Below, one piece after another: positions 3,770 through 17,698 of a DNA stretch of 17,698 bases (the first letter of the stretch is position 1; each line of letters opens with the position of its first letter). Position numbers and translations under genes: made by a program. The stretch spans positions 1 through 17,698 of the forward strand of contig CAYZSS010000013.1 of NCBI GenBank assembly GCA_964480435.1, in the 5' to 3' direction. The notes below the pieces were generated by a model. That model saw only the letters and a list, made by a program, of their open reading frames with translations, searched no databases and was not told the origin of the DNA. The stretch is from an uncultured archaeon. GTDB taxonomy: Archaea > Iainarchaeota > Iainarchaeia > Iainarchaeales > 0-14-0-20-30-16.

Positions 3770-4405
3770 TCAGTTTCTTATTTTTTTAATTAACAGCAAG
3801 CCATTATCAATTTGAAGAGGATAACTGATTATTCTATTATCATTTTTTACCGTATCTAAAAATTTTGTCATATATTTTTTATAATTAGTAATATTATCTG
3901 CTACAATAATACCCCCAAGCCTAAGTTTAGGAAATACCTGTTCATAGTATTTATGGTAATCTTCTTTTTTTGCATCAATAAAAACAAAATCAATTTTCTT
4001 TTTGAATTTTTTTAATGCAGAAAAAATATCTTCTTCAAAAATAGTTATTTGTTTTTCTAACCCAGCGGAAACAATATGTTCTTTTGCCAATTTTATTTTT
4101 GGTTTAAACACCTCAATAGAATAAACATGCCCTTTTGTTTCCTTAGCCCCAAGACCAAACCACATACCAGAGTAACCTATAGAAGTGCCAAGTTCAAGAA
4201 TAGTTTTTGAACTTGTAGATACTACTAAGAATCGCAAAAATTCAGCAGTTGATCTTGAAACCTGCCAAGCATAAATAACGCCTTTAGTTTTATTTTTGGT
4301 AACTACATCTGTGTAATTTTTTGTTGGCACCCAGTTAATTGTTTTCCCTAGCTTTTCAACATCTTTAGAAACTCTTTCAAAATTATCTAAAAAACTTTGA
4401 TTCAT
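3770..4405 (-). CDS. Class I SAM-dependent O-methyltransferase (caffeoyl-CoA OMT / Methyltransf_3-like)
   Basis: Motifs are ILELGTSIGYSGMWF (SAM motif I), FVFIDAKKEDYHKYYE and LRLGGIIVADN, which match the FIDADK..Y / GG.IV.DN signature of family-3 O-methyltransferases. I prefer ATG 4405 (MNQSFLDNF...) because it follows a GTGAT Shine-Dalgarno site and lies 4 nt after the upstream stop. The track start, ATG 4444, would overlap the upstream gene by 35 nt. Confidence 0.8.
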   Translation of the reverse strand: MNQSFLDNFERVSKDVEKLGKTINWVPTKNYTDVVTKNKTKGVIYAWQVSRSTAEFLRFLVVSTSSKTILELGTSIGYSGMWFGLGAKETKGHVYSIEVFKPKIKLAKEHIVSAGLEKQITIFEEDIFSALKKFKKKIDFVFIDAKKEDYHKYYEQVFPKLRLGGIIVADNITNYKKYMTKFLDTVKNDNRIISYPLQIDNGLLLIKKIRN

Positions 4406-4409
4406 TATA

Positions 4410-6830
4410 TCACTTCTTAAATGCACTTGCTGTTTTTCCTGCATCCCAGGTTACCCTTGGTCTAATCTTTACTAACCAAAGCTTTTCAGAATTATCATCC
4501 AAGATTAATGCATATCCTTTTGCTCTGGGCATTCTTGCAAAATATTTATCCATATCCTCATGTAAATAACTTGGTCTTAGTGCAGACACAGCATCAATAT
4601 CTGGTTTTGCAGTCATTCTCATACTTAAAAATAAATCACACTGGGAAATTGCATCAGGATGTAATTTCTCTGGTCTCTGAGTTGCTAACAATAAACTCAA
4701 TCCAGGTTGTCTTCCAACTCTCACCCACTCAAGCAAAACATCTAATGCCATACTTGGTCTATCTTTTGGCATGAACATGTGGGCTTCATCAATAAGCATC
4801 CAAATCATTGGAAGGTCATTCTTTTTTTCTCCTTCCCCAATTAAAGTTATTTCTTCTTTTTTTCTTTCTAACATTCTTTCTTCATACAATCTTTTTCCAA
4901 GAAGAGCAACAATAATTTCTCTTATATTTTCCATCCCTAAAACTTGACCATAAGTTGAAACATCAATAATATTTACAAACCCAGGTTTAGCCATATCTCT
5001 TACCCCTGTTCCTGTTTTTGAAAATATACCCCATGACTCAGCAACATCAAATCTATTTTTCAAACTTACTCTTACATCTTTATCTGTTTCCTGCATCATA
5101 TCAATTGTAGCTTGTATTTCTTTTATTCCATAATAAGTTCCAAAAGTTTCTTTTGCTTTTTCAATTACATCCAACAATAATGATGCTTCTTTGTCGTTCC
5201 AACCAAGTTTGAACATTGAGAACCATTCCATTGGATCAAGATCAGAAGTTTTTATTGTAAATGCATCGTCCACAGGCATTTTATTTGTTTTATAAAAATC
5301 TAGTTTTCCTTGTGGAACTAAAACCCTTAGATTCTCCATTCCTTGTGGTTCCAAACCCCATTCCCTAATTATTGATTCATCTTCTTTATTTGCTAATTTC
5401 ATACTCCAAAAAATTCCAACAGTATCAATAACAAAAATAGACATTCTATTTCTTATTTCTGGCGGAAGATTAGAAAAACCTTCAATAAAAACCGACATCG
5501 CGTAGCTCTTACCACTATTGTGACTTATTATGCCATTAGCAATAAAAGAATGATTTTTTGGTACTTGTAAATCATAAACTTTTTTTATCCCTTTAATTTT
5601 GCTTATCTTTATTATTTTTTGGAAAAAGGACGTACTATCTAAGTATTCTGTTGATTTTCTTTTTTCCACCTTGTTAAATTTTCTTTTTTCTAATCTATTT
5701 TGTTTTTCTTTCTGGAAAAAACTTATTTCTGTTCTATATTTTTTTACTGAACTATAATCAGAAATGTCTAACTCATAGGACGTGAATTTTTTACCATTAC
5801 AAGTAGTTTTTTTTGTTCTAATACAAGATTGAATTCCAAAATAAGCCAACAATAAATTTAGGTCTCTGATTAATCCAATTGAATTGGAATAATAATTTAC
5901 TCTTACACCTTTTTTTTCGACGTATCCATCACAAGAAAATAATGCCTTAATAAATTCACTTTTAAATTTATTAGAAGATTCCCAAACTACTTTAGGAATA
6001 CGTATTATTTTATCTTTTTTTCCACGCGGAACCCCCAACTTTTCAAAGAAATGTACAATTTTTTGTTGTTCTGTTGTTACTATTTTACAATTTTCTTTTC
6101 CTTTTTCTTCGATTCTAGATTGAATTCCAAACTCTAAATCTAAATCTTTTTTCGTCCGAGTTAATATTTCTTCATCCCCAGCTATAATCCTTACTCTTGC
6201 TTTATTACCATTATATAGGTAACCCTTGCCATCTTTATAAATTCCAGACCTTATTTGCATACTACCATCAGATAATAAGAATCCCAGCAGCCTTGCAACC
6301 CTTAAACTATACTTATTTTTTATCTTTATTTCCGGCAGACTATAAACAGTTAAAATTTCATCAGTATCTTTTATTTTGCTTGCTTTAATCCACTCTGTTT
6401 TCTTGTTTCTTCTAATTAATAATGGATGCTCAGTAGTAGCTATTAACTTTTGCCCATCCTTAAATTCAAATTCACGCATCTCTTCGTTATTAGCCACATC
6501 GTAAATGATAAGCTTTGCTTTTTCCCATTCAAATTTGTTTTTTTCTATATTATAAGATAATACCTTATCTTTAGGTAAAAAAGTTGATATTTGTTTATAA
6601 CCCTTATCAGTAAAAATAAGAGTATCTTCAACAAGACAACCCCTTTTACCACAAATAAGTACAACATGGGGACTTGCAAGATCAACAAATACTTTTCTAC
6701 CTAATACTGGATTTTCTCCAGAGCTCATTACTACTTTTGCTAAAAATCCAGTTCCTTTTGCACCATATTTGTTAATATCTTTTTCTGGTCTTCCAACAAT
6801 AATATCTTCAGCTGCTAATTCAAAACCCAT
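4410..6830 (-). CDS. HerA/DUF87-type (FtsK-HerA superfamily) P-loop ATPase, intein-containing (paralog 1); extein about 430 aa
   Basis: After removing the intein, Walker A reads ICGKRG|SGKSYAMS. Walker B is WMLIDEAHMFMP. The sensor motif is LLLATQRPEKL and the C-terminal motif is VKIRPRVTWDAG. The track start is GTG 6839. ATG 6830 (MGFELAAEDIIVGRPE) lies 4 nt after a GTGAT Shine-Dalgarno site. Confidence 0.85.
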   Translation of the reverse strand: MGFELAAEDIIVGRPEKDINKYGAKGTGFLAKVVMSSGENPVLGRKVFVDLASPHVVLICGKRGCLVEDTLIFTDKGYKQISTFLPKDKVLSYNIEKNKFEWEKAKLIIYDVANNEEMREFEFKDGQKLIATTEHPLLIRRNKKTEWIKASKIKDTDEILTVYSLPEIKIKNKYSLRVARLLGFLLSDGSMQIRSGIYKDGKGYLYNGNKARVRIIAGDEEILTRTKKDLDLEFGIQSRIEEKGKENCKIVTTEQQKIVHFFEKLGVPRGKKDKIIRIPKVVWESSNKFKSEFIKALFSCDGYVEKKGVRVNYYSNSIGLIRDLNLLLAYFGIQSCIRTKKTTCNGKKFTSYELDISDYSSVKKYRTEISFFQKEKQNRLEKRKFNKVEKRKSTEYLDSTSFFQKIIKISKIKGIKKVYDLQVPKNHSFIANGIISHNSGKSYAMSVFIEGFSNLPPEIRNRMSIFVIDTVGIFWSMKLANKEDESIIREWGLEPQGMENLRVLVPQGKLDFYKTNKMPVDDAFTIKTSDLDPMEWFSMFKLGWNDKEASLLLDVIEKAKETFGTYYGIKEIQATIDMMQETDKDVRVSLKNRFDVAESWGIFSKTGTGVRDMAKPGFVNIIDVSTYGQVLGMENIREIIVALLGKRLYEERMLERKKEEITLIGEGEKKNDLPMIWMLIDEAHMFMPKDRPSMALDVLLEWVRVGRQPGLSLLLATQRPEKLHPDAISQCDLFLSMRMTAKPDIDAVSALRPSYLHEDMDKYFARMPRAKGYALILDDNSEKLWLVKIRPRVTWDAGKTASAFKK
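5517..6638 (-). mobile_element. Intein (374 aa) with LAGLIDADG homing-endonuclease domain, inserted in the Walker-A loop of HerA paralog 1 between GKRG and SGKS
   Basis: Block A is CLVEDTLIF, with Cys1 at codon 6638-6636. Block B is ATTEHPLL (TxxH). The LAGLIDADG motifs are LLGFLLSDGSM and FIKALFSCDGYV. Blocks F/G are VYDLQVPKNHSFIANGIISHN, followed by +1 Ser. The terminal Asn is codon 5519-5517. I checked both codon positions against the sequence. Confidence 0.88.
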
Positions 6831-6874
6831 AAGTATCACACTTCATTCTATATATGTTAAAATAGTATATAACT

Positions 6875-7135
6875 TTATTTCAAAGCCATTACTACAAACC
6901 CATATTTTTCAACATCTTCTTTTTTCCACATTGTAGCATTTTTTGTTTTCAATACAGAAGTTATTTTCTTTTCTAAAACCCTACCAGTATAATCTTTTGT
7001 TCTGGGGTCCCATTCTTTTAGAACTAAAATGTCCCCTTCTTTGCAATCAAAATCCGCAACTCTTATATCATAAGTTTTGCTTCCGTTTTTTACTAAATCA
7101 AAATACTCTGGCCAACATTTTTTTTCTATTTTCAT
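6875..7135 (-). CDS. DUF3850-like / ASCH-PUA-fold small protein
   Basis: The 86-aa ORF reads KKCWPEYFDLVKNGSKTYDIRVADFDCKEGDILVLKEWDPRTKDYTGRVLEKKIT. This matches my recollection of the DUF3850 pattern (W-PEYF..v..G.KtfEiR.nDRdf.vGD.L.L.Ew....YTGR). A 9-nt gap separates it from the upstream gene. Confidence 0.7.
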   Translation of the reverse strand: MKIEKKCWPEYFDLVKNGSKTYDIRVADFDCKEGDILVLKEWDPRTKDYTGRVLEKKITSVLKTKNATMWKKEDVEKYGFVVMALK

Positions 7136-7144
7136 ATTCTCACA

Positions 7145-7672
7145 TTAATCCATTTTTTCGAATTTTCTTTCATCAAAATGTTCTCTTAATCCATGGAACA
7201 CAATACCATAATTAACATATTTTTTTCCATCAGTATCAATATCATGCCATCTTTTCATTAATTCTTTATAGGGTATATAAGTTCTCAAAAAAGAGGAAGG
7301 ATCTGCAAAATAGATTCTTTTTCTATCATAACCTATTGCAACAACATAATGGCCATCAACCCAGTCTTTTTCCCAGTCAACATGCTTTTTATCAGTCCAA
7401 GCTTGCAAAACAAGTATTACTGGTTTTTTATGTGCCAAGTGCTTCTTCAATTCTTTTAGTGTCATATCATGCACAGTTGCATGCAAACCATATTTTTCTG
7501 CTACTTTCATAATTCCAGAAATAGGGGTGCCATTCTTAGAGGTACCAGCAAGTTTCATGATGATATCCTCTCTTACATCCTTCCCATAATATGCCAACAC
7601 CAATTGCACAGCCTTTGCACCGCAATCATAATTGTAGGTTTGCCTACCCCGAGGAAAATCAATCATTTTCAT
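7145..7672 (-). CDS. Papain-fold cysteine peptidase, C39-like (Peptidase_C39_2-like)
   Basis: Candidate catalytic motifs are QTYNYDCGAKAVQLVLAYYG (Cys), VDGHYVVAIGYD (His) and YFADPS (Asp). The track start at 7732 is TTG. The first ATGs are at 7672 and 7666 (MKMIDFPRGRQ). aaatataaat lies about 25 nt upstream of 7672, which suggests a leaderless transcript. Confidence 0.7.
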   Translation of the reverse strand: MKMIDFPRGRQTYNYDCGAKAVQLVLAYYGKDVREDIIMKLAGTSKNGTPISGIMKVAEKYGLHATVHDMTLKELKKHLAHKKPVILVLQAWTDKKHVDWEKDWVDGHYVVAIGYDRKRIYFADPSSFLRTYIPYKELMKRWHDIDTDGKKYVNYGIVFHGLREHFDERKFEKMD

Positions 7673-7759
7673 AATAGATATATTTCTTTGAAATTTATAT
7701 TTGTTACTATCAAAGTAGGAGCCAAACAGCAAAGGTTAGACAAAAAAATAACAATTTAA

Positions 7760-7800
7760 ACAAAAATAGAAATAATAGAAAAAGTGGCATTAATGCCACT
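7760..7800 (-). terminator. Stem-loop plus T-tract, a likely terminator of the Sm/MinD/HerA operon transcript
   Basis: agtggcattaatgccact (7783-7800) is an 18-nt perfect palindrome. On the minus strand it is followed by TTTTTCTATTATTTCTATTTTTG (7782-7760). Confidence 0.45.
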
Positions 7801-7801
7801 G

Positions 7802-7920
7802 TCTTTCTTTTGGGCAACTAAGAAACCTTTTTGCGTTAAGGCAAAAAGTTTCAGAGCCTGAATAATTTTCCTTTGGAAAATTACTTCTTACTTACCATTT
7901 TCTTTCTTCAAGAAAGAAAA
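7802..7920 (-). other. Series of five consecutive hairpins between the Sm stop codon and the terminator hairpin: a structured 3' UTR or a candidate small RNA
   Basis: I verified the complementary arms by eye. They are 7804-7809/7820-7825 (6 bp), 7827-7834/7841-7848 (ctttttgc/gcaaaaag, 8 bp), 7850-7854/7858-7862 (ttcag/ctgaa), 7863-7871/7875-7883 (taattttcc/ggaaaatta, 9 bp) and 7898-7908/7910-7920 (ttttctttctt/aagaaagaaaa). No ORF is present. Confidence 0.4.
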
Positions 7921-7926
7921 GGGCAG

Positions 7927-8154
7927 TTAGGGAGTTATCATTATCAAAGAGTCTCCTCTTAGCATAGTCTTCCCATATTTAATTTTTACACTGTTGTCTT
8001 CTTCTAGTTGTTCAGCATCATCTAATACAACATTCATGTGTATATCAAAGGCAAGTAATTTTCCTCTTATTTTCACATTTCCTTTCATTAAAACTAATAC
8101 GGATTTTCCTATCCATGAGTTTAAATGATCAAAAGGTCTACTTTCAGTAGTCAT
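7927..8154 (-). CDS. Sm-like archaeal protein (SmAP / LSm)
   Basis: 75-aa ORF. The Sm1 motif is VLVLMKGNVKIRGKLLAFDIHMNVVLDDAEQL and the Sm2 motif is MLRGDSLIMI. A GGGGG Shine-Dalgarno-like run lies 9 nt upstream of the ATG, and a 15-nt gap separates it from the MinD gene. Confidence 0.9.
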   Translation of the reverse strand: MTTESRPFDHLNSWIGKSVLVLMKGNVKIRGKLLAFDIHMNVVLDDAEQLEEDNSVKIKYGKTMLRGDSLIMITP

Positions 8155-8169
8155 AATTATTCCCCCAAT

Positions 8170-8952
8170 TTATTTTTTGTTCTTAGAAAAAATTCTTTTA
8201 ATCCAAGCAAAGAACCCACCTGATTCGTTCTTGAATTCTATTTGAATCCCTAATATTTTTCCTGCAACAGCAAGTACTGCTTTTGATGCCATTGCATTTG
8301 GATTACGTATAATTACTGGTTGTATTTTTTTATAGTAAAATGTTTTTCTTACTTCTTCATCATATGGTATTACCCCATACAAAGGTAATTCAAGCATGCT
8401 AATAATATCTTTTTCAGGTATTTCTCCTTTTAATCCAGCATACATATTAATTATAACTCCAACCGGTTTTGCATTTATTCTTTGTGCAGATATTTTTGTT
8501 TTTAGGGCATCTGCAATAGATAAAGAATGTGGATTCACAACCAAAAATACTTCTGTTGATGATGCCATAGCAGCAAGAGTGTCTTCCCCAATTCCAGCAG
8601 GACAATCCAATAATACAAAATCATATTTTGGAGCCACTTGTTTAATTATATTAGGCAACTTTGTTAAATCTAATCTTTGGGTATCTTGCAATCCTAAAGA
8701 AGCAGGCATAATATTTATTTTTTCAGGACCATCATAAACAACATCCCAAACTCCAGCATCCCCTTTAAGTACATCATTCAAAGTTATTGGACTTGTTTCC
8801 ATTCCGAGTATTAAGCTTAAATTCGCCATTGCCAGATCAGTATCAACTAATAACACTTTTTTTCCTTGTCTTGCCAAAGCAACACCTAAGTTAGCAACCA
8901 CAGTAGTTTTTCCTACTCCTCCTTTTCCTGATGCAAAAGCAATTATTCTCAT
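8170..8952 (-). CDS. minD: MinD/ParA-family ATPase (archaeal MinD-like, SIMIBI class) with a C-terminal amphipathic tail
   Basis: The deviant Walker A is IAFASGKGGVGKTTVVANLG. Further motifs are LLVDTD and a Walker-B-like FVLLDCPAG. The C-terminus, GGFFAWIKRIFSKNKK, resembles a MinD membrane-targeting helix. The track start at 8964 is TTG. ATG 8952 (MRIIAF) follows a GGTGAT Shine-Dalgarno site. Confidence 0.9.
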   Translation of the reverse strand: MRIIAFASGKGGVGKTTVVANLGVALARQGKKVLLVDTDLAMANLSLILGMETSPITLNDVLKGDAGVWDVVYDGPEKINIMPASLGLQDTQRLDLTKLPNIIKQVAPKYDFVLLDCPAGIGEDTLAAMASSTEVFLVVNPHSLSIADALKTKISAQRINAKPVGVIINMYAGLKGEIPEKDIISMLELPLYGVIPYDEEVRKTFYYKKIQPVIIRNPNAMASKAVLAVAGKILGIQIEFKNESGGFFAWIKRIFSKNKK

Positions 8953-8972
8953 ACATATCACCAAAATACTTT

Positions 8973-9443
8973 TTAAATTTTAACAAAAGACATAATTTTT
9001 CTATATTCTTCTAGAAAAATATTTTTACCATAAACTGCAATATCTTTTGATACTGCATTTAACTCAAACTCGCTTAATCTTGCCTCACTCTTTATTAGAT
9101 ACACAAAGTCATCTCTCTCAAACATACTTACCCAGCTTCCCACATTAAAATAAAGAACTTTATCTTTTCTTTTAAACGCTGAAAACATATCGTAAATTTT
9201 GTTTGCTAATTCCAGAATTTCTGGAGAGGATGAATAAAGCAAATTATTAGCTTTAAAAACAACCACGCTATCAATTAAATGTTTTCTTAGTAAAGAGTCC
9301 ACAAATTCATTAAATGTGTTTCTTGATATTTCTGTAACGGAATATTCTTTAGAAACATCTTTCAGATAATTTATTTGTTCTAATGGCAGGTCAGTGTCAT
9401 CAAGGCCCAATATTTTATATACCAATTTTGAAAATATATTCAT
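8973..9443 (-). CDS. Hypothetical protein (156 aa); possibly a roadblock/LC7-like fold, weakly supported
   Basis: The ORF is tightly packed, with its ATG 1 nt after the upstream stop. The alpha-beta-beta pattern ...FVDSLLRKHLIDSVVVFKANNLLYSSSPE...VLYFNVGSWVSMFERDDFVYLIK is only reminiscent of roadblock/LC7. No diagnostic motif was seen. Confidence 0.55.
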   Translation of the reverse strand: MNIFSKLVYKILGLDDTDLPLEQINYLKDVSKEYSVTEISRNTFNEFVDSLLRKHLIDSVVVFKANNLLYSSSPEILELANKIYDMFSAFKRKDKVLYFNVGSWVSMFERDDFVYLIKSEARLSEFELNAVSKDIAVYGKNIFLEEYRKIMSFVKI

Positions 9444-9444
9444 A

Positions 9445-9933
9445 TTACAACCCTATATTACCTAAACCAATTTCCTTAAGCAGAGCATATTTATCCTTAC
9501 TTAGCTCAGATTTATCTATATATTTCTCTACTAAAGACTCTTTATATTCCTTTATGTAATTATCAAAGATTTTCTGCATATTCGCTGATTTTATCAGGAT
9601 TTTATCATTAAAGGTAATAATTAACTCCATTTGTTCATTTGTTAGTCTAAAAACATCAAAACAGCCAAATTGTGAAGCAAAAGAGTTAAAAAATAGCCTA
9701 ATCCCTTCTTCACCATAAATTATTTTATCAAATGCTAAAAATGCATGAGAGCAACCCATTACAGAACCCTGTTTAAAAAACAAAGTAGAATCTTCAAACC
9801 CATAGTTCATTTTTGTTGTTACTGCAATATAACCACTAAAGTTTTTGGATTGCAGATCAGAGATAACTTTCCTAACATCAACTTTTTTTATGTCAATATT
9901 TTCTGCTACTCTTTCACCAACTGGAATATTCAT
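9445..9933 (-). CDS. Hypothetical protein (162 aa); possible PATAN/DUF4388-like domain, weakly supported
   Basis: VISDLQSKNFSGYIAVTTK...STLFFKQGSVMGCSH....IYGEEGIRLFFNSFASQFGCFDVFRL resembles the PATAN pattern L..L....tG.L.v.....g.iyf..G.vv.A.....G.eAl..ll....G.F.f. I prefer ATG 9933, which has a GTGAT Shine-Dalgarno site 6 nt upstream and lies 7 nt after the NYN stop. The track start at 9984 would overlap the NYN gene by 44 nt. Confidence 0.55.
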   Translation of the reverse strand: MNIPVGERVAENIDIKKVDVRKVISDLQSKNFSGYIAVTTKMNYGFEDSTLFFKQGSVMGCSHAFLAFDKIIYGEEGIRLFFNSFASQFGCFDVFRLTNEQMELIITFNDKILIKSANMQKIFDNYIKEYKESLVEKYIDKSELSKDKYALLKEIGLGNIGL

Positions 9934-9940
9934 AAAAATA

Positions 9941-10399
9941 TCACTTTCTCTCTTTATCAAGCACAATAACATAATCCGCCGCATTCTTTAATGCTGATCC
10001 GGAAGATTCATCCACAAGTATTACTGCAACATCTTTTCCATGTTGTTTCGCTTTTACTATTGCTGGCAAAAAATCTGAATCTCTAGTAACCAAACAAATA
10101 ACATCAATATTTGGATTAAACACTGTCTCAGTAGCTTCAACAGCCATCATCACATCAATATCTGAAACACAAACAGCAACTTCAAATCCCTGATTTATTA
10201 CTGCTTCTACTAATTTCCCTGGTGCAAACTGGTTCAGATACACTTTACCAATTTTCATAACCCCAAGTTTATTTATTATACCTTTTACCTTACCCAGGTC
10301 CAAACTAAACTCTTTCCTAAGCATATTTGGGCCATCAATAAATACGGCTACTTTCTTCTCTTTTTTTGTCTTAAATTTATCCCAAACCCTTTCCAACAT
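9941..10399 (-). CDS. NYN-domain (LabA/DUF88-like) protein, a predicted RNase fold
   Basis: The acidic motifs are in the order expected for a LabA-type NYN domain: VAVFIDGPNM, VSDIDVMMAVEA and LVTRDSDFLPAIVKAKQHGKDV. Confidence 0.8.
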   Translation of the reverse strand: MLERVWDKFKTKKEKKVAVFIDGPNMLRKEFSLDLGKVKGIINKLGVMKIGKVYLNQFAPGKLVEAVINQGFEVAVCVSDIDVMMAVEATETVFNPNIDVICLVTRDSDFLPAIVKAKQHGKDVAVILVDESSGSALKNAADYVIVLDKERK

Positions 10400-10438
10400 A
10401 AAAACACCATATATTAGTTATATAAAATGTAATTTAAA

Positions 10439-13400
10439 CTATTCTACTTTATGACCATAATAACTATCAAATAAAGCTACTTGGTTAGACTCCTCATTTT
10501 TAAACATATATTCCTTTCTCAAAAGAGTATCTATGTTTTCTATTTTTATATTTTTCCATATTATTCCAATCAGCGACCTTAAACTCTCCATACTTATTCT
10601 AGGATCAAGTATATGTTCCTGCTCAACTTCCTGCTCCATTAGGTGTATTTCACCAACCGAAGAAAGTAGTTTTAGTTTAGGGTTCTGTGGAACTTCTATT
10701 GTTTTCAACGCAAAGTATACATTCCTTATTCCTCTTTTTTCTTTTCTTACCAATCCTGCAGAAATAAATCTCTCCATCATATTCTTCAGTTTTACTTCTC
10801 CAAAACTACTTAATTCTTCCAAATAAGCAACATCAAACCCTTTATTCTTTGGCAATTTTAAGATTAACCTTAAATCATCTGCATCAAAGGCTTTTATTTC
10901 TGTTAGCCCTTGGGAATAAACAAAGTCATTGTCTATGTTATGTAGAAACTCTATTTTTACTGGGTCAATATAACATTCATTTGTTACAAAACCGCCGTCA
11001 GGGTTATAGATTTTATAATCCACTTTTAGAATTGGCCTATAAACCGTGCTTACAACAAAATTAGTCCAACCAAGTGTTCTCTTTGCAACACCCTCCACCT
11101 GCTCTTTATCATAGGTCTCTTCTAAAACAGCGTACTTAACTTTTTCTCTATATTCTTCCTGCTCTTCTTCTTTTTCAATTGATAAAATATCATCTTCTAA
11201 TTTTGCTCCACTATCCACCAAGGAGCCCAAAAACTTTTCAAACCCAACTGTTGATTTGTATTTCATATTTAGAATTTTTAGTAAAGTTTCCAAAGAATGC
11301 ATATCCAAAGACCCATACCTATCCAGTTTGCCCATTCCGATTTCTGCCATTATTTTCAGCAGGTCTTTTTCTTTGTATTCATATTTTATTTCTGCTGTCT
11401 GGGTTTCTCTTCCCTCGTGTTGTGACATTCTAGGTCTTACTTTTATAACAAATGCTCTGGAAGTTGTTTCAACTCTATCCGCAACCAGAGGAACACCAAT
11501 CTCAAGCCTTTTTATGAATTCTGGTTTCCTAAATTCAGCGGGCACTATTGTTGGGATTCTTCTATACACTGCTTTAATATCATCATCAAAAACTAATTTA
11601 TAAGAAATTAAAGTTCCTACCTGTGACAAAACCCTGGTATCAATTGCCGATGGTTGCTGAGTTGCAAACACCAATGAACAACCTGGCCTTCTTCCTTGTT
11701 TTACATATTCTATTATTGCTTTTGATGCTGGAGTTTCCAAAGACCCAGACGGAATTAAGGTGTGGGCTTCATCAATAAATAACCAAGTTGGAGGAATATC
11801 CATTTCTAAAGTATCTAGTGCTTCACCACCATTACTAAATTTCTTTACTGCTTGCTTTCTAGTTGCAATCTTTCTTGCAGATAAAATTCTTCTGGCAATA
11901 ACACCAACCAACAAAGCAGCAACAGTTTCATCCAAAAAACTAACATCAATTACTGTTAATTGACCTGGCACTGAAATCTCAATTAAGGGAGTTCCCTGCT
12001 TTGCAAAAATACCCCATGATTTCCCTGCTTCAAATCTTGAAATTAATGCTCTCATAGAATCTTTTTTGTAACCTTTTTCTTTTGAGTTTAATTCAGCATC
12101 ATCCCTCAAACAGTTAGTAATATCATCAATTTCATAATTCCCATTTTTTCCTTTTACTATTAATCCAGCTAAAGACCTATATCCATCTCTTACTTTTATT
12201 AAAACTTTTTCTAATAGTAAGCCTAAAGGACTAAATCTATCAATCCCAAAGGTTAATGCCCAATCTTCCGCAGTCAGGAAAGATGGCTGGATTGTAAAAA
12301 CAGCATCATAAGTTTCTTTAGGGGTCTTTGATTTTGCCCCTTCAGGGATAAATACCATTACATTATCCAATCCTTTTGGATCTAATCCCCATTCTCTTAA
12401 TTGTTTTATTTCGCTCTCTTGCCTGTTTGGATATTTCATACTCCAAAATACACCCACAGGGTCAATAACAACCATTCCTACATTTGGATTCTTCATTGCT
12501 AATTCTTCTGCAACAACACCCAAAACATAGGAGTTATGCACAAAAACACTGTTAGCAATAAAATTATGATACTTAGGGATAGTAATATCGTAAACTTTTG
12601 TTTTTCCCTTTATTTCTTTTATGCTTACTATCTCATCCCAAAAAATATCTGAATTAGCCAAAGTAGTTAGTTCTTTATTTTTTAACAAAGCCCCAATTTT
12701 TTGCAATTTATCTCTACCAATATCATAACATTTGCAACTAATTATTGATTTAGGACTTTTGTAGCCATAATCTCTTCCGAGCTTTGCCCAATTCTCTACT
12801 TTTATTTTTTTAAATATTTCTTTAGGGATAGTATCGATATTAGTATTATACTTTATTTTTTCAAGTTCTTTCTTAGCAATTTTTGAGACCTTTTCTTTTC
12901 TTCCATAAAATCCAATTCTATCTATAAAGTCTGCAACAAATCTTCCAGCAATAACAATTTCAAAACTCCTAACATACTTTCCTAAATATTTTACTTTCTT
13001 TTCTCTTATTCTATTCACAATTCCAAATCTTAACAAAAGATGATGAACTTGTTTGATTAAGTCTTCAGAAGAAGAGCTATAAGATAATTGCCAACAGTTA
13101 TTGTAAAATATAGATCCATCACAACTAAACAGCCTATTCAAAAACAAAGCAAGTTTTTCCTTTCTTAATGTAAAAATCTCTTTAGGAATAAATCTTTCCG
13201 GGGACTTTTTCCCGTACAGTTCAACGGATTCCAAGTACTGCACAAGAGAGTTTTTTAGCATTTTTATTTTTGATTCATTAGTAAACATCCCTTTTGAATT
13301 TCTTTTTAGTCCAGAGCAGTCAGTTTTTTTCTTTTTTTGTGCTACTCTAAAACACCCAGCTCTTGAATGGATTTCCACTCTTAAGTTGCTATCAAAATCA

Positions 13401-14419
13401 TTTACTGCTTTCTTAAATTCATCAGAAATTACTTTATCTTCGTTAGAAAATAACACAAAAGAATTACCCATATGCCCTTCTGCAATCAAATATGCCAAAA
13501 GCTTTACTTTATGGTCTTCTAAATTACTTTTCCCAAAAGCAGGGATTTCTCTGGGCGTTGCGATCTTAGTACCTTTCTTTATTTTTTCTGCAGGTTCCCA
13601 ACCATTAATTGTGTACAGAGGATGCTCAGGAGTCAATTTTATTGTTTTTCCTGAATTTAATTTTAGTTCTAATATCTTCTTTACTTCTCTTTCATAAAAG
13701 TTCTTTTTCTTGATTTTTTTAATCTTTAAATTATCATCCATTGCTAATAGTTCTTCATCTTTCTTCAAATCTTTTATTTGCTTTATTTCTCCATTTGCAA
13801 GAATTATCTCTGTTTCCCCTACAAGGCACTTTCCTGATCCTCTGGACCCACATACAAACATTACCTGAGGGTCTAAAGAATCAAAGTAAATTTCTTTTGC
13901 TTCTTCACCATCTTCGTAAACTTTTCCTAAATACAAAGCAGCTTCTTCACCGTATTTTTCAAAAACAGATCTCTTTCTTCCAACCATTGCATGGCCAGTT
14001 AAAGGATTTTCTAAAAAAGTTAAAGGCACATTGCACTTGTTAATTATTTTTGTTACATTATCTTTAATTAGTTCAGCATCAGGAATTCCAAATACAGGTT
14101 CATCACGAGTAGAGTTAGATTCTTCAAGTCCCTCTTCTAAGCTATCTTCACTTTTGGATTCTGTTGTTATTGCATCCTCACTATCAGTATTTTCTTCTAT
14201 TTTCTTTCTTGATGCTCTTTTCTTCTTTGGTTTTATCTCAGTCATAGGCTCTTGATCCTGTGACTCTTGATTAGATTCTTCGGGTATTTCTTTTGTTTCT
14301 GCTACGGGTGTTTCTTCCGGTTCTGCTTTTTCCACAAGATTATTTGAATATACGGTTGTCTTTCCTTCTTTTTTCTCTGGATTCCCAGCCATATCATCAA
14401 ATATATCAAACATTCCCAT
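10439..14419 (-). CDS. Giant HerA/FtsK-superfamily ATPase (paralog 2), 1326 aa: acidic disordered N-terminus, intein-interrupted ATPase core, 316-aa C-terminal extension with a wHTH-like motif
   Basis: The spliced Walker A reads VCGSRGSGK|SYVLG. Walker B is WLFIDEAHTLIP. The sensor motif is LVFATQQPSAI and a further motif is IKVRPRMSQHEG. The core is collinear with paralog 1, for example VGR..KYG...LGKV...D..P.V...CG.RGSGKSY. The C-terminal region carries MERFISAGLVRKEKRGIRNVYFAL. Confidence 0.85.
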   Translation of the reverse strand: MGMFDIFDDMAGNPEKKEGKTTVYSNNLVEKAEPEETPVAETKEIPEESNQESQDQEPMTEIKPKKKRASRKKIEENTDSEDAITTESKSEDSLEEGLEESNSTRDEPVFGIPDAELIKDNVTKIINKCNVPLTFLENPLTGHAMVGRKRSVFEKYGEEAALYLGKVYEDGEEAKEIYFDSLDPQVMFVCGSRGSGKCLVGETEIILANGEIKQIKDLKKDEELLAMDDNLKIKKIKKKNFYEREVKKILELKLNSGKTIKLTPEHPLYTINGWEPAEKIKKGTKIATPREIPAFGKSNLEDHKVKLLAYLIAEGHMGNSFVLFSNEDKVISDEFKKAVNDFDSNLRVEIHSRAGCFRVAQKKKKTDCSGLKRNSKGMFTNESKIKMLKNSLVQYLESVELYGKKSPERFIPKEIFTLRKEKLALFLNRLFSCDGSIFYNNCWQLSYSSSSEDLIKQVHHLLLRFGIVNRIREKKVKYLGKYVRSFEIVIAGRFVADFIDRIGFYGRKEKVSKIAKKELEKIKYNTNIDTIPKEIFKKIKVENWAKLGRDYGYKSPKSIISCKCYDIGRDKLQKIGALLKNKELTTLANSDIFWDEIVSIKEIKGKTKVYDITIPKYHNFIANSVFVHNSYVLGVVAEELAMKNPNVGMVVIDPVGVFWSMKYPNRQESEIKQLREWGLDPKGLDNVMVFIPEGAKSKTPKETYDAVFTIQPSFLTAEDWALTFGIDRFSPLGLLLEKVLIKVRDGYRSLAGLIVKGKNGNYEIDDITNCLRDDAELNSKEKGYKKDSMRALISRFEAGKSWGIFAKQGTPLIEISVPGQLTVIDVSFLDETVAALLVGVIARRILSARKIATRKQAVKKFSNGGEALDTLEMDIPPTWLFIDEAHTLIPSGSLETPASKAIIEYVKQGRRPGCSLVFATQQPSAIDTRVLSQVGTLISYKLVFDDDIKAVYRRIPTIVPAEFRKPEFIKRLEIGVPLVADRVETTSRAFVIKVRPRMSQHEGRETQTAEIKYEYKEKDLLKIMAEIGMGKLDRYGSLDMHSLETLLKILNMKYKSTVGFEKFLGSLVDSGAKLEDDILSIEKEEEQEEYREKVKYAVLEETYDKEQVEGVAKRTLGWTNFVVSTVYRPILKVDYKIYNPDGGFVTNECYIDPVKIEFLHNIDNDFVYSQGLTEIKAFDADDLRLILKLPKNKGFDVAYLEELSSFGEVKLKNMMERFISAGLVRKEKRGIRNVYFALKTIEVPQNPKLKLLSSVGEIHLMEQEVEQEHILDPRISMESLRSLIGIIWKNIKIENIDTLLRKEYMFKNEESNQVALFDSYYGHKVE
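12533..13828 (-). mobile_element. Intein (432 aa) with LAGLIDADG homing-endonuclease domain, inserted in the Walker-A loop of HerA paralog 2 between GSGK and S
   Basis: Block A is CLVGETEIIL, with Cys1 at codon 13828-13826. Block B is LTPEHPLY. The LAGLIDADG motifs are LLAYLIAEGHM and FLNRLFSCDGSI. Blocks F/G are VYDITIPKYHNFIANSVFVHN, followed by +1 Ser. The terminal Asn is codon 12535-12533. I checked both junction codons against the sequence. Confidence 0.88.
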
Positions 14420-14463
14420 TTTTTACACCCTATTGGTTAATTAGAATAATATTTAGTTTCGTT

Positions 14464-14471
14464 ATATAAAA
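14464..14471 (-). promoter_or_regulatory. TATA box (TTTATATA on the minus strand) upstream of the HerA-paralog-2 operon
   Basis: The plus-strand tatataaa at 14464-14471 is TTTATATA on the minus strand, about 45 nt upstream of ATG 14419. GGGTG lies about 6-10 nt upstream of the ATG as a Shine-Dalgarno site. Confidence 0.4.
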
Positions 14472-14514
14472 GGAAAAAAGATATATAAATATAGGGTATA
14501 TTTAGGAAATTATT

Positions 14515-15537
14515 CTAGGCATATTTTGCCTTTCCAGTATTAACAATCAATATTTTCTTATCCTTAGGGATTTTATCTTTCATTTGTAACAGCAAAGCCA
14601 AACCAGAAATTCCAGATGGTTCAAAATTAATTTTCTGTGCTGCTGCAATTTCCATTGCTTTATCCAAGAATTCTTCTTTTAAAATATAAACACTAGATGC
14701 TTGCCCACAAAATCCAGCATAACGATAAAATCTCATCCATTGTTCATCATAGTGTACAAAAGGCAAATGTGGAGAATACAATTTTTCCGCCTTTGATCTT
14801 GGATTATTAGTAGTAACTCCAAAGAAATTACATTTTCTTATTTTTTCTATATCTCCCTTAAATCTTTTATCCTGTTTTTTTGAAGATATTTCTTTTCTAA
14901 CAATATTCAAAATATTTTCATAAAGTTGTCCAGTCCCAAAAGGAACAAAACAATAGTCTGGGCTGGAATTAATTATTTCATAGCTAAGCCAGTCATAAAA
15001 CCGCATTGTTGGATCCAAAGCAATGTTAGAAGTAATATCAAACCCATCTAAATTATGTGTTAAGATTAGTATCTCTTTACTGCCAAATGGTTTTTCACTT
15101 AAATCTGTTTTGTATATTTCACAGCCAATTTTTTCTAGTTTTTCTATTATACTCTTGTTAAGATATTCATCAACCAAAACTTTTAGAGATGGCAATCCAT
15201 ATTTAGCTAACACAGTTTGTATTGCAAATGCTGCAGACCCAGATGAGATTATAGACATTTGGGGTAATTTTGACTTTACTAACCCTTTCTTTTTTGACAT
15301 CAAAAAGTCTCGATAATTTACAATTATTTCCCAAGCCATCCTGTCCTTATGTGTTCCCGTTGGATTATAGCTTTCATCTTTTAACCAAACATTTGTGAAT
15401 CCAGGTACCTTTATTTTATAAGTAGGAGTAGCAGGAAATTTTGGGTTTTCAGGAGGAAATTCTGGTTTGTTAGGGTTATTTTCAGACGGTACAACAATTG
15501 ATTTTAATATTTTTTCTTCTTTCTTTGATAATCCCAT
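14515..15537 (-). CDS. Fold-type-II PLP-dependent enzyme (Trp-synthase-beta / threonine-synthase-like superfamily), divergent
   Basis: LKDESYNPTGTHKDRMA matches the PLP-lysine motif K.E..NPTGSFKDRGA. SSGSAAFAIQ resembles the AS.GN.g loop, and VPFGTGQLYENI resembles the glycine-rich phosphate loop. It has its own AGGTG Shine-Dalgarno site and an upstream TATA-like tttttatatat. Confidence 0.72.
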   Translation of the reverse strand: MGLSKKEEKILKSIVVPSENNPNKPEFPPENPKFPATPTYKIKVPGFTNVWLKDESYNPTGTHKDRMAWEIIVNYRDFLMSKKKGLVKSKLPQMSIISSGSAAFAIQTVLAKYGLPSLKVLVDEYLNKSIIEKLEKIGCEIYKTDLSEKPFGSKEILILTHNLDGFDITSNIALDPTMRFYDWLSYEIINSSPDYCFVPFGTGQLYENILNIVRKEISSKKQDKRFKGDIEKIRKCNFFGVTTNNPRSKAEKLYSPHLPFVHYDEQWMRFYRYAGFCGQASSVYILKEEFLDKAMEIAAAQKINFEPSGISGLALLLQMKDKIPKDKKILIVNTGKAKYA

Positions 15538-15599
15538 CTAAACACCTTTTTTATTATATAATAAATAAGGTAAAATATATAAAAACAGTTTATAACAGC

Positions 15600-16562
15600 T
15601 TACGGCCAATTTCTTTTAAACCAGTAAACTCTTTTGTGTCTTCCATCAAAAACAGTTATTCCATAAGAAGAATCAGCTTTAACAAAAACTACTGGAGAAA
15701 GATATAGCCCAATTACTTTTCCATTATCAAACAAAGGGTTAGTAACATCAAATATGTGCCAAATACCATCCAATTTTACTAAGTTAAAAGCACGAGGTCC
15801 ATTTTCTGCTATTTGCCCACCATTTTCATCTGTATGCTCCAGTTTTATTTCTCCCACAACATACCTTGATTCAATCCCTAATTCCTGTAAAATTAATTGT
15901 GCAAGCATAGAAAGTTCTGAACACATTCCAACTTTTTCTTTTACAAATTCTGATAACTTTTGTGCTGAATCTATTTCAGAATCATAGGTCCTATCCGAAA
16001 TTAATTGTCTCTTTGCTTCACTCTGTTCAAAAGAAGCATATAAGAACTTTGCAACTAAAGCAATTTCTGTTTTTTGGGTTTTAGGAAGATGTGGAGCAGA
16101 ACCAGAATAAGTTTCAATATATTTTTTAACATCAGATATTAATTTTTTTATTTCTTGGCTGTTAGGGTCTATCTTTGTTGCATGCCCAAATGGAGAAATA
16201 GGTAACACATCCCCTTCTTGTAATTCTTTTATAATTCCCCCTCTAAATATCCCCACTGCATCAGAACCATGGCTTTCAGCAGAAACATATTTATCCATAA
16301 ATTTTGCTGCCCTAAAATTTGTTATAGCTCCTCTTGCAAGCAAAATTTTTTCTTTAAAAAGAGGATCTGATTTTATTTTTCTTACTGCTTCTTTTATTTT
16401 TTCTGGATCAGATAAAGTTCCAAATTCTAAACCAAAAAGAGATTCTAATACAGCCATGCTATTTTCTTTTCTTCCATGTGTAGTTTCAGGAGTTAATTTA
16501 TGATCCTTTACCAAATCAGCAATTCTTGCTCTTACTTCCGGCTTTAATTCTCTAAATGGCAT
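15600..16562 (-). CDS. Hypothetical protein with a C-terminal transglutaminase-like (papain-fold) core
   Basis: KVGMCSELSMLAQLILQELGIESRYVVGE ... RAFNLVKLDGIWHIFDVTN parallels the transglutaminase-core pattern G.C..fa.l....R.lGIpaRyV.G ... HAW.EV...g.W..fDpT. The N-terminal ~200 aa were not recognised. Confidence 0.55.
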   Translation of the reverse strand: MPFRELKPEVRARIADLVKDHKLTPETTHGRKENSMAVLESLFGLEFGTLSDPEKIKEAVRKIKSDPLFKEKILLARGAITNFRAAKFMDKYVSAESHGSDAVGIFRGGIIKELQEGDVLPISPFGHATKIDPNSQEIKKLISDVKKYIETYSGSAPHLPKTQKTEIALVAKFLYASFEQSEAKRQLISDRTYDSEIDSAQKLSEFVKEKVGMCSELSMLAQLILQELGIESRYVVGEIKLEHTDENGGQIAENGPRAFNLVKLDGIWHIFDVTNPLFDNGKVIGLYLSPVVFVKADSSYGITVFDGRHKRVYWFKRNWP

Positions 16563-16574
16563 AAAAATCCCTTA

Positions 16575-16615
16575 CAATAGTTTACTTCCATTTTCTGCTT
16601 TCTTTTCTAAACAGG
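16575..16615. repeat. Direct repeat copy A: a displaced or duplicated 3' end of the csaA-like gene
   Basis: It contains tttacttccattttctgcttt (16581-16601), identical to 17440-17460. On the minus strand it still reads ...LEKKAENGSKLL-stop, compared with the gene's real end ...PEKKAENGSKLY-stop. Confidence 0.8.
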
Positions 16616-16619
16616 TTAT

Positions 16620-16805
16620 TCACCAAACAGATAAACCTTTCATTTTAAGATATTGTTCTTTAGTATAATTTGCAGATTTTATTGAAGAATTTATTATTAC
16701 ATTTTGTTGTTTAGACCAATCAAGGTCATCATGAGTTTTTACATAGTCCGCCCACAATTTAACAAACTTCATTCTTTCCCCATTATTTTCCGAAATAAAA
16801 CTCAT
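16620..16805 (-). CDS. Small hypothetical protein (61 aa, or 50 aa from ATG 16772), second gene of the NTase cassette
   Basis: The ORF overlaps the NTase gene by 23 nt if it starts at 16805. The internal ATG 16772 (MKFVKLWADYV...) has a GGGGA Shine-Dalgarno site 6 nt upstream and lies 10 nt after the NTase stop. No family was recognised. Confidence 0.45.
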   Translation of the reverse strand: MSFISENNGERMKFVKLWADYVKTHDDLDWSKQQNVIINSSIKSANYTKEQYLKMKGLSVW

Positions 16806-17367
16806 TTAACATCACCGCATATTTTTTTATTAATTCGTTACTAAGGTGTCCATACGCAACAGCCCGTATGTGTTGCGCATCTTCTAAATCTTTAGGAGAC
16901 TTTAGAACTTGTTCTTTAAAAGCAATCTGCAATTCTAAACAAGAAATAATAATTTGTTTATCTTTCACCATAATCTCAATAGGCCTAGATAAAGCAAGTT
17001 CATCAAAAGGAGTCTTTACAAATTTTACTTCCATATTTGGAATTATCGTATCTTTTTTTGCAAATCTTACTGAAACATTATTTTTCAAATAATCATAAGC
17101 TTCTTTATAGTCATCAGTATTAAGACAGTAAAAATCATTAGCGTATAACTCCTTGCACAAAGCCTTAAAAGAGATAAAATTTAACTTAGGAACTATTAAG
17201 TCAATGTCTTCACTTGCCCTAGATCTCCCCAATAGGATCGCCACATAACCGCTAATAATTACATATTTTGAGTGAGGTTCTAAAATCTTTAAAAAATCGA
17301 GTGTAAAGTTATCCAAATCAGACAATTCTCTATCTAGCTTTATTTTTGATTTAGATACAAACTCCAT
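16783..17367 (-). CDS. Nucleotidyltransferase-fold protein (minimal NTase, MNT/AbiEii/DUF6036-like)
   Basis: VIISGYVAILLGRSRASEDIDLIVP fits the pol-beta NTase signature G[GS]-x(9-13)-DhD. At 194 aa, its size is typical of toxin-antitoxin or abortive-infection NTases. Confidence 0.55.
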   Translation of the reverse strand: MEFVSKSKIKLDRELSDLDNFTLDFLKILEPHSKYVIISGYVAILLGRSRASEDIDLIVPKLNFISFKALCKELYANDFYCLNTDDYKEAYDYLKNNVSVRFAKKDTIIPNMEVKFVKTPFDELALSRPIEIMVKDKQIIISCLELQIAFKEQVLKSPKDLEDAQHIRAVAYGHLSNELIKKYAVMLNEFYFGK

Positions 17368-17430
17368 ATAGTAAAATAGACTGTTTCTTTTTAAAATAGT
17401 ATCGAATTTAGCCCTTAAAACACCACTAAA

Positions 17431-17698
17431 TCAATATAATTTACTTCCATTTTCTGCTTTTTTCTCAGGGACTGCTAATACAACCCCTTTATCTGTATAG
17501 AATCCAGTTGTTAAAACTTCAGAAAAAAATTTACCTATTTGTTTAGGAGGAAAATTAGTTACACATATTACTTGCTTACCAATTAATTCTTCTTTTTTAT
17601 ACAAAGCAACAATTTGTACACTGGAATTTTTTATTCCAATTTCTTTACCAAAATCTATTTTCAATTTATACGCTGGTTTCTTAGCCTCAGGATAATTT
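17431..17698 (-). CDS. csaA: CsaA-type tRNA-binding-domain protein (EMAP/Trbp111 OB fold), C-terminal part; the gene continues beyond the window end
   Basis: The frame is open to the window edge: NYPEAKKPAYKLKIDFGKEIGIKNSSVQIVALYKKEELIGKQVICVTNFPPKQIGKFFSEVLTTGF. This matches the CsaA pattern FPEArKPAYKl.iDFG.eiG.K.SSaQIt..Y..EeLiG.qV..VvNFpPkqIg.f.SEVL. The track 'M' at 17664 is a TTG Leu codon. Confidence 0.85.
   Translation of the reverse strand, partial: NYPEAKKPAYKLKIDFGKEIGIKNSSVQIVALYKKEELIGKQVICVTNFPPKQIGKFFSEVLTTGFYTDKGVVLAVPEKKAENGSKLY
17432..17469. repeat. Direct repeat copy B, the authentic 3' end of the csaA-like gene
   Basis: It shares the 21-nt perfect core (17440-17460) and imperfect flanks (caata..., ...ttct..cagg) with 16575-16615. 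Confidence 0.8.

Follow-up and report, generated by a model that had tools for sequence, protein, structure and literature searches.

A conserved MinD-containing five-gene operon of Iainarchaeota and the HerA/FtsK-like ATPase that recently became its neighbour

Do six closely packed genes of an uncultured archaeon encode one molecular system, or do they combine an operon with a neighbour of a different history? The genes in question lie on the minus strand (14419..7927) of contig CAYZSS010000013.1 (assembly GCA_964480435.1; Iainarchaeota), a stretch of 17,698 nucleotides (nt) that was analysed over its full length and is referred to here as the window. They encode, in the order of transcription, an ATPase of the HerA/FtsK superfamily (ATPase A), a NYN-domain protein, two small proteins (p3 and p4), a MinD-type ATPase and an Sm-like protein (Table 1). 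A preliminary description of this DNA had viewed all six as a candidate undescribed system in which a giant ATPase is coupled to the other five proteins. Its account of the arrangement was exact: six co-directional genes are separated by gaps of 39, 7, 1, 20 and 15 nt, the value of 20 nt applying when ATG 8952 is taken as the MinD start codon. Pfam and NCBIfam profile searches likewise upheld its assignment of the DUF87/HerA, NYN, MinD and LSM domains. It had overlooked a 432-amino acid intein, the membership of p3 in the DUF2226 family, a second intein-bearing ATPase (ATPase B) and the run of about 17 co-directional genes in which the cluster resides. The comparative data presented here partition the locus in another way. 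On balance, we favour the view that it consists of an old, conserved MinD-centred operon of DPANN archaea and of a HerA/FtsK-like ATPase gene that was recently juxtaposed to it.

To our knowledge, archaea possess MinD-family ATPases and lack MinC and MinE, and few partners of the archaeal MinD proteins have been described. As noted by Makarova, Koonin and Albers (2016; PMC4858521), archaeal FleN/MinD ATPases are often found in predicted operons together with unrelated proteins, and type IV pilus loci repeatedly include Roadblock/LC7 proteins. The neighbour discussed in the paper on Haloferax MinD2 is a different gene, HVO_0596, which gave no phenotype.

Conservation of the five-gene core

We compared 80 loci from GTDB species genomes, each anchored on its NYN gene, and searched their open reading frames (ORFs) with profiles that started from the window proteins and were extended by iteration. 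A DUF2226 gene is positioned directly 3' of NYN in 50 of these loci, and the named organisms among them are Iainarchaeota or Diapherotrites, including the complete genomes AR10 and Forterrea. Where sufficient sequence is present downstream of NYN (37 species loci), the order NYN-p3-p4-MinD-Sm is found within 4.5 kb in 34 cases, and the remaining three loci retain three or four of the five genes. The flanks are less well conserved: aIF5A is located upstream in 21 of 40 loci, a gene for a coiled-coil protein (c6) is located downstream in 16 of 25, and the core resides in at least four distinct flank contexts. Its frequent neighbours in Iainarchaeota are aIF5A, MetRS, L15e, RNase P Pop5 and proteasome alpha.

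The arrangement reaches into a second phylum, as two Micrarchaeota contigs carry the order TatD-NYN-DUF2226-MinD-Sm, without p4. Sequence identity between the Iainarchaeota and Micrarchaeota proteins amounts to about 21% for DUF2226 and about 38% for MinD. As a negative control, we inspected the surroundings of other MinD-family genes, a mixed set that serves no other purpose; among the matches listed, NYN, DUF2226, p4 or Sm genes were present near MinD in none of 80 metagenome loci. The methanogen NYN loci that we sampled have variable and unrelated neighbours, with no DUF2226, MinD or Sm gene beside NYN. Because the order is kept across Iainarchaeota and Micrarchaeota while the flanks vary and the controls are negative, we conclude that the core, with five genes or, in Micrarchaeota, four, is a true operon that this DPANN branch has conserved.

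By the preliminary description's own standard, that a lack of gene-order conservation in related genomes would refute it, the case holds for the five-gene core, which is kept across Iainarchaeota, and falls for the ATPase, whose position in front of NYN is not conserved. The claim that the gene combination is undescribed is supported. Full-text searches of the literature returned no relevant paper on DUF2226, PF09987 or TIGR00288 (the family of the NYN protein), and no description of this cluster was found in the literature on MinD with NYN, Roadblock or PATAN. The five-gene operon is thus apparently undescribed, and its parts all belong to known families.

Individual loci depart from the common pattern. 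In L018 (11006-13693) and L028 (10962-12452), p4 was not detected and 1.5-2.7 kb of other sequence separates DUF2226 from MinD; in L047 (after 11383), MinD and Sm are not adjacent to p4. The protein c6, of about 530 amino acids (318-651 across loci), is encoded in L038 (8240-9829) and in 22 other loci. Its L038 representative, which has no Pfam match, comprises a small conserved N-terminal domain, a low-complexity middle part and a long coiled-coil C-terminus, and c6 may be a partner of the MinD operon with a cytoskeletal or scaffold role. The window lacks it, and genes for a C39-family peptidase and an ASCH/DUF3850 protein take its position there; the idea that c6 is a diverged ATPase B was ruled out. 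Both Micrarchaeota contigs and a single euryarchaeal genome have a TatD-family nuclease gene immediately in front of NYN and in the same orientation (L085 5285-6013, L086 5237-5989, L063 9117-9866), which is possibly a second conserved pairing for the TIGR00288 protein. The proximity of NYN and HerA genes in Methanothrix (L075, L084) was discarded as coincidental, the HerA there being the canonical HAS-barrel protein and a rhomboid gene lying in between.

Core proteins and their possible joint function

The MinD protein of the window scores 273.4 bits with the archaeal MinD model TIGR01969 (cutoff 201.75) and carries the deviant Walker A motif SGKGGVGKT that is present in all cluster MinDs. 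Its amphipathic C-terminal tail, GFFAWIKRIFSKNKK, is of the same type as the membrane-targeting helix of E. coli MinD, and the tail motif GF[FL]xRLFxxFKKK is found in about 40 of 44 cluster MinDs. None of the neighbouring proteins matched the MinC or MinE families. One Iainarchaeum locus (L017 3345-5558) has a cluster MinD ORF of 737 instead of about 260 amino acids, which may represent a fusion, an insertion (perhaps an intein) or an artefact of ORF calling. The NYN protein reaches 193.6 bits with TIGR00288 (cutoff 178.45) and an E-value of 4e-25 with PF01936; it is 50-57% identical to its methanogen orthologs, the alignment shows conservation of the invariant Asp residues, and the protein is a predicted RNase. 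The Sm protein scores 66.3 bits with PF01423 (cutoff 23.4) and, with 75.6 bits, stays below the cutoff of 101 for the NCBIfam equivalog NF001963.

Both small proteins had initially been regarded as unknowns. While p4 indeed has no Pfam family, p3 is a DUF2226 protein: it matches PF09987 with 34.6 bits (cutoff 22) over profile positions 12-109 of 252 only, and 21 of 26 p3 orthologs match the model as well. Its start codon, ATG 9933, is backed by the orthologs, all of which open with MN[IL]P. The N-terminal domain is beta-rich with the pattern F.GY..T..G..G.EEG.L.F..G, and the C-terminal tail is conserved as K..lFKKlGLG. Read by eye from the alignment, the N-domain pattern resembles that of PATAN domains; this resemblance is below significance, as only one of 26 orthologs matches PATAN/DUF4388 (PF14332), and does so weakly (E 0.0016). 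A word-indexed homolog search with p3 retrieved five close relatives only. Matches of the p3 profile to Utp17 among the PDB sequences (E 0.002) cover a low-information helical tail and were disregarded; otherwise, profile searches with p3 and p4 against the PDB sequences gave nothing significant. An AlphaFold2 model of p3 from a five-sequence alignment had a predicted local distance difference test (pLDDT) score of 44.5, too poor for use, and its Foldseek search was uninformative.

The p4 family is small (32 cluster representatives among 1.84 billion proteins). Three signals, weak but concordant, make a Roadblock/LC7-like fold with an N-terminal extension probable for p4, though not established. 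In hhalign, p4 aligns over the whole domain with a hand-entered sequence of human roadblock-1 (probability 31%, E 5e-4); its top profile match among solved structures, likewise weak, is 1y4o, the dynein light chain roadblock (E 1.1); and a Foldseek search with an AlphaFold2 model computed from the single sequence (pLDDT 40.5) was dominated by LAMTOR, roadblock and MglB-type folds, all with E above 0.2. Kinship between p3 and p4 was ruled out (hhalign probability <1%).

How might these proteins act together? In the reading that we favour, MinD would dimerise on ATP and bind the membrane via its C-terminal amphipathic helix, and would hence be a membrane-binding ATP switch. DUF2226, with its PATAN-like N-domain and its basic-hydrophobic C-terminal tail, and the Roadblock-like p4 would be MinD adaptors or regulators of its ATPase activity; they would stand in for MinC and MinE, and a cellular cargo would thereby be positioned. 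The NYN RNase and the Sm RNA chaperone would be co-transcribed, growth-linked RNA-metabolism genes, with which the MinD core is co-expressed and to which it is possibly also physically coupled. ATPase A would be co-expressed in the window lineage through its recent juxtaposition, and would not be a required component.

Several observations weigh against this view of the locus. The median junction gaps along the core are 4, 17, 54 and 11 nt, with many 4-nt overlaps; the tightest junctions are those of NYN with DUF2226 (4 nt) and of MinD with Sm (11 nt, 41 loci), not that of DUF2226/p4 with MinD, and junction tightness is thus no less compatible with a physically integrated RNA-plus-MinD machine than with the split proposed here. 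The link of DUF2226 and p4 to MinD is one that we infer, the fold assignments of p3 and p4 are weak because their AlphaFold models are poor, and the Micrarchaeota support consists of two contigs. In the lineage of L003 and L005, the two nearest relatives of the window locus, the ATPase is probably co-transcribed with the core, since its gap to NYN is 17 nt long, has a Shine-Dalgarno-like motif and lacks the TATA-like box TTTTATATAA; it could have acquired a functional link there. Moreover, ATPase B recurs beside Sm in three genomes.

Some of these points lend themselves to another interpretation, possible but considerably less likely in our opinion, in which the five core proteins form a single RNA-centred machine whose MinD, DUF2226 and p4 components would tether or position an NYN-Sm body at the membrane. 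The NYN-DUF2226-MinD-Sm order persists in two phyla despite the low identities of DUF2226 and MinD, the tightest and often overlapping junctions cross the two functional categories, the core is conserved better than its flanks, and none of the 80 control loci among the matches listed shares the association, which thus is peculiar to this MinD orthologue. E. coli RNase E and Hfq reportedly associate with MinD and with cytoskeleton-like structures, which would be a parallel. The methanogen TIGR00288 loci, however, have none of the presumed partners beside NYN; archaeal superoperons often combine housekeeping genes of separate functions, and the cluster lies in a region of this kind; and with structural models of p3 and p4 that are unusable, physical interaction is a proposal only. 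Of nearly equal, slightly lower probability is an extended version of this idea, according to which MinD with DUF2226 (and Roadblock-like p4 in Iainarchaeota) would organise a membrane-associated NYN-Sm RNA-processing body to which, in the lineage of the window, an FtsK/HerA-like translocase is possibly recruited.

The pairing of DUF2226 with MinD in two phyla, one of which also has the Roadblock-like protein, provides concrete and testable candidates for MinD partners. The TIGR00288 NYN protein is near-universal in archaea and uncharacterised, and the operon offers a first functional context both for it and for DUF2226. The presence of NYN and Sm in a MinD operon further makes it conceivable that RNA processing in DPANN cells has a spatial organisation; a MinD-organised RNA body, if true, would be a ribonucleoprotein machine positioned by a ParA/MinD ATPase, and its components the first candidate partners of an archaeal MinD.

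The ATPase upstream of the core

The six-gene order, with ATPase A adjoining NYN, is restricted to the window, to L003, a metagenome contig outside GTDB whose ATPase is 83% identical to ATPase A and has no intein, and to L005, which represents a GTDB species and shares 84% identity in NYN with the window. Expressed in species loci, the ATPase is found upstream of NYN in one of the 40 that are testable (L005). Its family as such is larger, with 576 proteins at E <= 1e-5, most of them free of inteins, and all named relatives belong to Diapherotrites/Iainarchaeota or to unclassified archaeal metagenome-assembled genomes. The orthologs at 44-64% identity are encoded away from NYN, MinD and Sm. Those at 62-64% (L002, L004, the P0003 contig, L087-89) lie divergently beside two to four pilin-like genes, and those at about 45% (L001, L092, L093) have genes for a small membrane protein, a protein of about 100 amino acids and a DUF3566 protein as neighbours. 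In assembly GCA_002779075.1, the ATPase gene is on contig PEXK01000005 and the NYN-to-Sm core on contig PEXK01000002. The ATPase is conserved throughout Iainarchaeota, and its adjacency to NYN is a recent event in one shallow clade; we deem it a newcomer because this adjacency is confined to L003 and L005 beside the window, and the orthologs at 44-64% identity are located elsewhere. A coupling of the ATPase with the rest of the cluster, as had been proposed, is not supported by this comparison.

The neighbours of these distant orthologs deserve mention in their own right. The pilin-like genes (L002 5289-7951, L004 5212-7902, L087 251-1544) are conserved, have no Pfam match and encode class III (type IV pilin-like) signal peptides, in which KGQA leads into a hydrophobic helix. 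Within the clade at about 62% identity, these genes may represent the true partners of the ATPase; none is present in the window. In the more distant group, a multi-pass membrane protein of 154-160 amino acids is encoded divergently upstream in three of three loci (L001 7313-11869, L092 6412-6894, L093 6477-10522); L001 and L093 also share the conserved protein of about 100 amino acids and the DUF3566 membrane protein downstream, with an SMC gene within about 7 kb.

The apparent giant size of ATPase A is caused by a 432-amino acid mobile LAGLIDADG intein that occupies its Walker A loop at GSRGSGK^S, and the spliced protein has 894 amino acids. The insert scores 97.5 bits with Intein_splicing (PF14890) and 56 bits with LAGLIDADG_3 (PF14528), is matched by TIGR01445 and TIGR01443 as well, and extends from Cys1 (CLVGETEI ...) to VHN|S, boundaries from which splicing is predicted. 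Its removal restores the Walker A sequence GSRGSGKS. This sequence is uninterrupted in P0001, the closest ATPase A ortholog (83% identical), and P0014 carries an intein at the identical site. A false lead is thereby removed: the "giant" is an ordinary-sized HerA/FtsK-like protein with an intein, and a recent neighbour of the core.

The spliced protein consists of an acidic low-complexity N-terminus, a short pre-ATPase region, a DUF87/HerA-type core (PF01935, 53.4 bits, cutoff 23.2; HerA_C, 22.7 bits) and a C-terminal extension of about 320 amino acids with a winged-helix-like segment. Orthologs of ATPase A have 830-1100 amino acids, and several of them match TrmB-type winged-helix models in this extension. 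ATPase B also belongs to the HerA/FtsK superfamily (PF01935, 36.5 bits, same cutoff), and it alone gave a match, a weak one of 25.6 bits, to FtsK_SpoIIIE. HerA proteins are the nearest solved structures to ATPase A (E 5e-9 or weaker). Judged from its sequence, however, ATPase A is not a canonical archaeal HerA, because no HAS-barrel was detected, its scores are far below the equivalog cutoffs and NurA is missing. The HAS-barrel model PF09378 matched neither ATPase A nor ATPase B, whereas a genuine Methanothrix HerA scanned in the same manner did match, and the NCBIfam HerA equivalogs NF040819 (cutoff 970) and NF040937 (cutoff 800) gave 35.3 and 32.1 bits, respectively. No NurA, Mre11 or Rad50 domain was present among the window proteins scanned, as the preliminary description had noted. 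We regard ATPase A as a probable motor for DNA handling whose C-terminus contains a winged helix.

Can all six genes nevertheless belong to a single system devoted to segregation, DNA transfer, RNA handling or defence? Tight packing in the window, the 17-nt ATPase-NYN gap with its Shine-Dalgarno-like motif in the two nearest relatives and the position of ATPase B just downstream of Sm in three genomes would agree with such a system, and an FtsK-like motor acting with MinD would be functionally sensible for division or segregation. The comparative data largely refute it, and we consider it improbable: the adjacency is confined to a single shallow clade, orthologs at 44-64% identity sit beside pilin-like genes or small membrane proteins, ATPase and core occupy separate contigs in one genome, and in the window a TATA-like box is placed between ATPase and NYN. 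Marginally less credible as an account of the whole locus is genome compaction, by which unrelated housekeeping genes would have been pushed together without selection on their order. The genomes of DPANN archaea are compact, and about 17 co-directional genes with short gaps extend across the window. Yet, despite changing flanks, the five-gene order persists in 34 of the 37 species genomes and also in a second phylum, and it is absent around other MinD genes (among the matches listed) and around the other NYN genes sampled. Compaction is therefore refuted for the core, and the junction of ATPase and NYN is still best described in this way. A reading of the cluster as an anti-phage defence island, with a HerA-type ATPase and a NYN nuclease at its base, is very improbable. 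The C-terminal half of both ATPases is matched by PADLOC HerA models, and there is a weak match to a defence NYN model, but these matches are partial and generic to P-loop and NYN folds, the anti-phage HerA models NF042943/NF042944 give 36-40 bits against cutoffs of 800-850, no effector homolog (Sir2, DUF4297) is present in the window, and the core, set among translation genes, has a near-constant order in the Iainarchaeota genomes sampled, whereas defence islands are patchy. The defence option raised by the preliminary description is left without support.

ATPase B is a paralog of ATPase A (29% identity over 445 amino acids, E 4e-60), and its gene is also found downstream of Sm in L003 and L006. 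Its own LAGLIDADG intein is inserted three residues further upstream in the P-loop than that of ATPase A. Identity between the inteins is as low as 27%, which suggests independent invasions of one P-loop.

Window layout and comparison with known systems

The window has a GC content of about 31% and a strongly negative GC skew. Nearly all genes between 17.6 and 3.8 kb are located on the minus strand, where about 17 consecutive genes (3770-17664) follow each other with short gaps and negative skew throughout; this run includes genes for a tRNA-binding protein, a transglutaminase-like protein, a pyridoxal phosphate (PLP) enzyme, the six-gene cluster, the C39 peptidase, the ASCH protein, ATPase B and an O-methyltransferase. 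Since the six genes sit within such a run, their co-directionality alone is uninformative, and only larger gaps of 95 nt upstream and about 250 nt downstream set the cluster off. Independent gene callers found the same genes on this contig in two public metagenomes.

Table 1. Positions of the genes and other features discussed in the text.
Feature	Position	Strand	Description
TATA-like box TTTTATATAA	14462..14471	minus	43-52 nt upstream of the ATPase A start codon
ATPase A	10439..14419	minus	HerA/FtsK-superfamily (DUF87) ATPase precursor, 1326 amino acids
Intein in ATPase A	12533..13828	minus	amino acids 198-629, 432 amino acids, LAGLIDADG homing endonuclease
Second exact TTTTATATAA	10418..10427	minus	within the 39-nt ATPase-NYN gap, 19-28 nt before the NYN ATG
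NYN	9941..10399	minus	TIGR00288 family, predicted RNase; first gene of the conserved core
p3	9445..9933	minus	DUF2226 protein, 162 amino acids
p4	8973..9443	minus	156 amino acids; small family found here only in Iainarchaeota loci
MinD	8170..8952	minus	archaeal-type MinD ATPase, 260 amino acids
Sm	7927..8154	minus	Sm-like archaeal protein, 75 amino acids; last gene of the conserved core
T-rich tract, then four stem-loops	about 7774-7926 (stem-loops given to 7938)	minus	directly after Sm
C39-family cysteine peptidase	7145-7732	minus	between Sm and ATPase B
ASCH/DUF3850 protein	6875-7135	minus	86 amino acids; between Sm and ATPase B
ATPase B	4410..6839	minus	paralog of ATPase A, 435-amino acid extein, about 1 kb downstream of the cluster
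Intein in ATPase B	5517-6638	minus	LAGLIDADG, inserted at GKRG^SGKS

The expression signals noted earlier were found again. Shine-Dalgarno-like motifs precede the internal genes (GGTG before NYN, GTGAT before p3, GGTGAT before MinD, GGGGGA before Sm). The TATA-like box reported upstream of ATPase A is present, and a further exact copy lies inside the ATPase-NYN gap. These are the only two exact copies of TTTTATATAA in the window, and the motif is not over-represented when one mismatch is allowed. Because the second copy sits 19 nt before the NYN start codon, it is a candidate internal promoter from which a NYN-Sm unit could possibly be transcribed. The terminator-like hairpin described after Sm corresponds to four stem-loops with a fold z-score of -4.9, the strongest inverted repeats in the window, and the region is probably one of transcription termination or a palindromic element. 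The first and the last of these hairpins recur after Sm in L003, and a run of palindromes of the CTTTTTGC..GCAAAAAG type precedes ATPase B there, possibly a family of elements resembling repetitive extragenic palindromes (REP); the L003 elements as a whole are located at 5657-5730 and 6040-6190. No RNA family of Rfam matched the hairpin spacer or the rest of the window, whether gathering or E-value thresholds were applied, and a tRNA search of the window found none; a scan for sigma-70-type promoters, which is not meaningful for archaea, gave a count at chance level and was set aside. The genes for the C39 peptidase and the ASCH/DUF3850 protein are replaced by a 580-nt spacer in L003, and the pair looks like a lineage-specific insertion.

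By its gene content, the cluster is not a MinCDE system, is not a HerA-NurA system and matches no catalogued defence system; it would work in the manner of a ParA/MinD positioning module, and it shares individual traits with several known arrangements. The MinCDE and ParA-MinD systems (MinD-MinE, FlhG/FleN, Haloferax MinD4 and MinD2) have in common with it the deviant Walker A motif with its signature lysine, a C-terminal tail closely resembling the membrane-targeting sequence of E. coli MinD, and a MinD encoded beside small proteins that are possible regulators. Unlike in those systems, no homolog of MinC or MinE was detected, the small neighbours being a DUF2226 protein and a probable Roadblock-like one, and an RNase and an Sm protein are part of the operon, a combination for which we found no described MinD system.

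MglA/MglB polarity modules join an NTPase switch to a Roadblock/LC7 regulator, often together with PATAN-domain proteins. The window operon recalls them through its own NTPase switch, the probable Roadblock fold of p4 and the weak PATAN/DUF4388-like signal in p3; it differs in that its NTPase is a MinD/ParA protein instead of a Ras-like GTPase, and the Roadblock and PATAN assignments are below significance.

ATPases A and B are of the same P-loop superfamily as the HerA of the archaeal HerA-NurA helicase for end resection, which acts with Mre11-Rad50, but ATPase A has the long C-terminal extension and an acidic N-terminus, no HAS-barrel was detected, and none of NurA, Mre11 and Rad50 is a neighbour. 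As in FtsK/SpoIIIE, its motor belongs to this superfamily and precedes a winged-helix-type domain at the C-terminus, which may recall the FtsK gamma domain; it is without a transmembrane N-terminus, and it would be a translocase by analogy only. Among intein-bearing P-loop ATPases (archaeal RFC, MCM, DnaB, RecA), a LAGLIDADG intein in the P-loop with Cys1 and HN/Ser+1 is familiar; here, the host belongs to a HerA-like family, and its two paralogs have dissimilar inteins whose insertion sites differ by three residues. Finally, the exosome and proteasome superoperons resemble the setting of the core among aIF5A, MetRS, L15e, Pop5 and proteasome alpha, a setting consistent with a co-regulated but functionally mixed string of genes; in contrast to such a string, the core is kept better than its flanks and moves between contexts as a unit.

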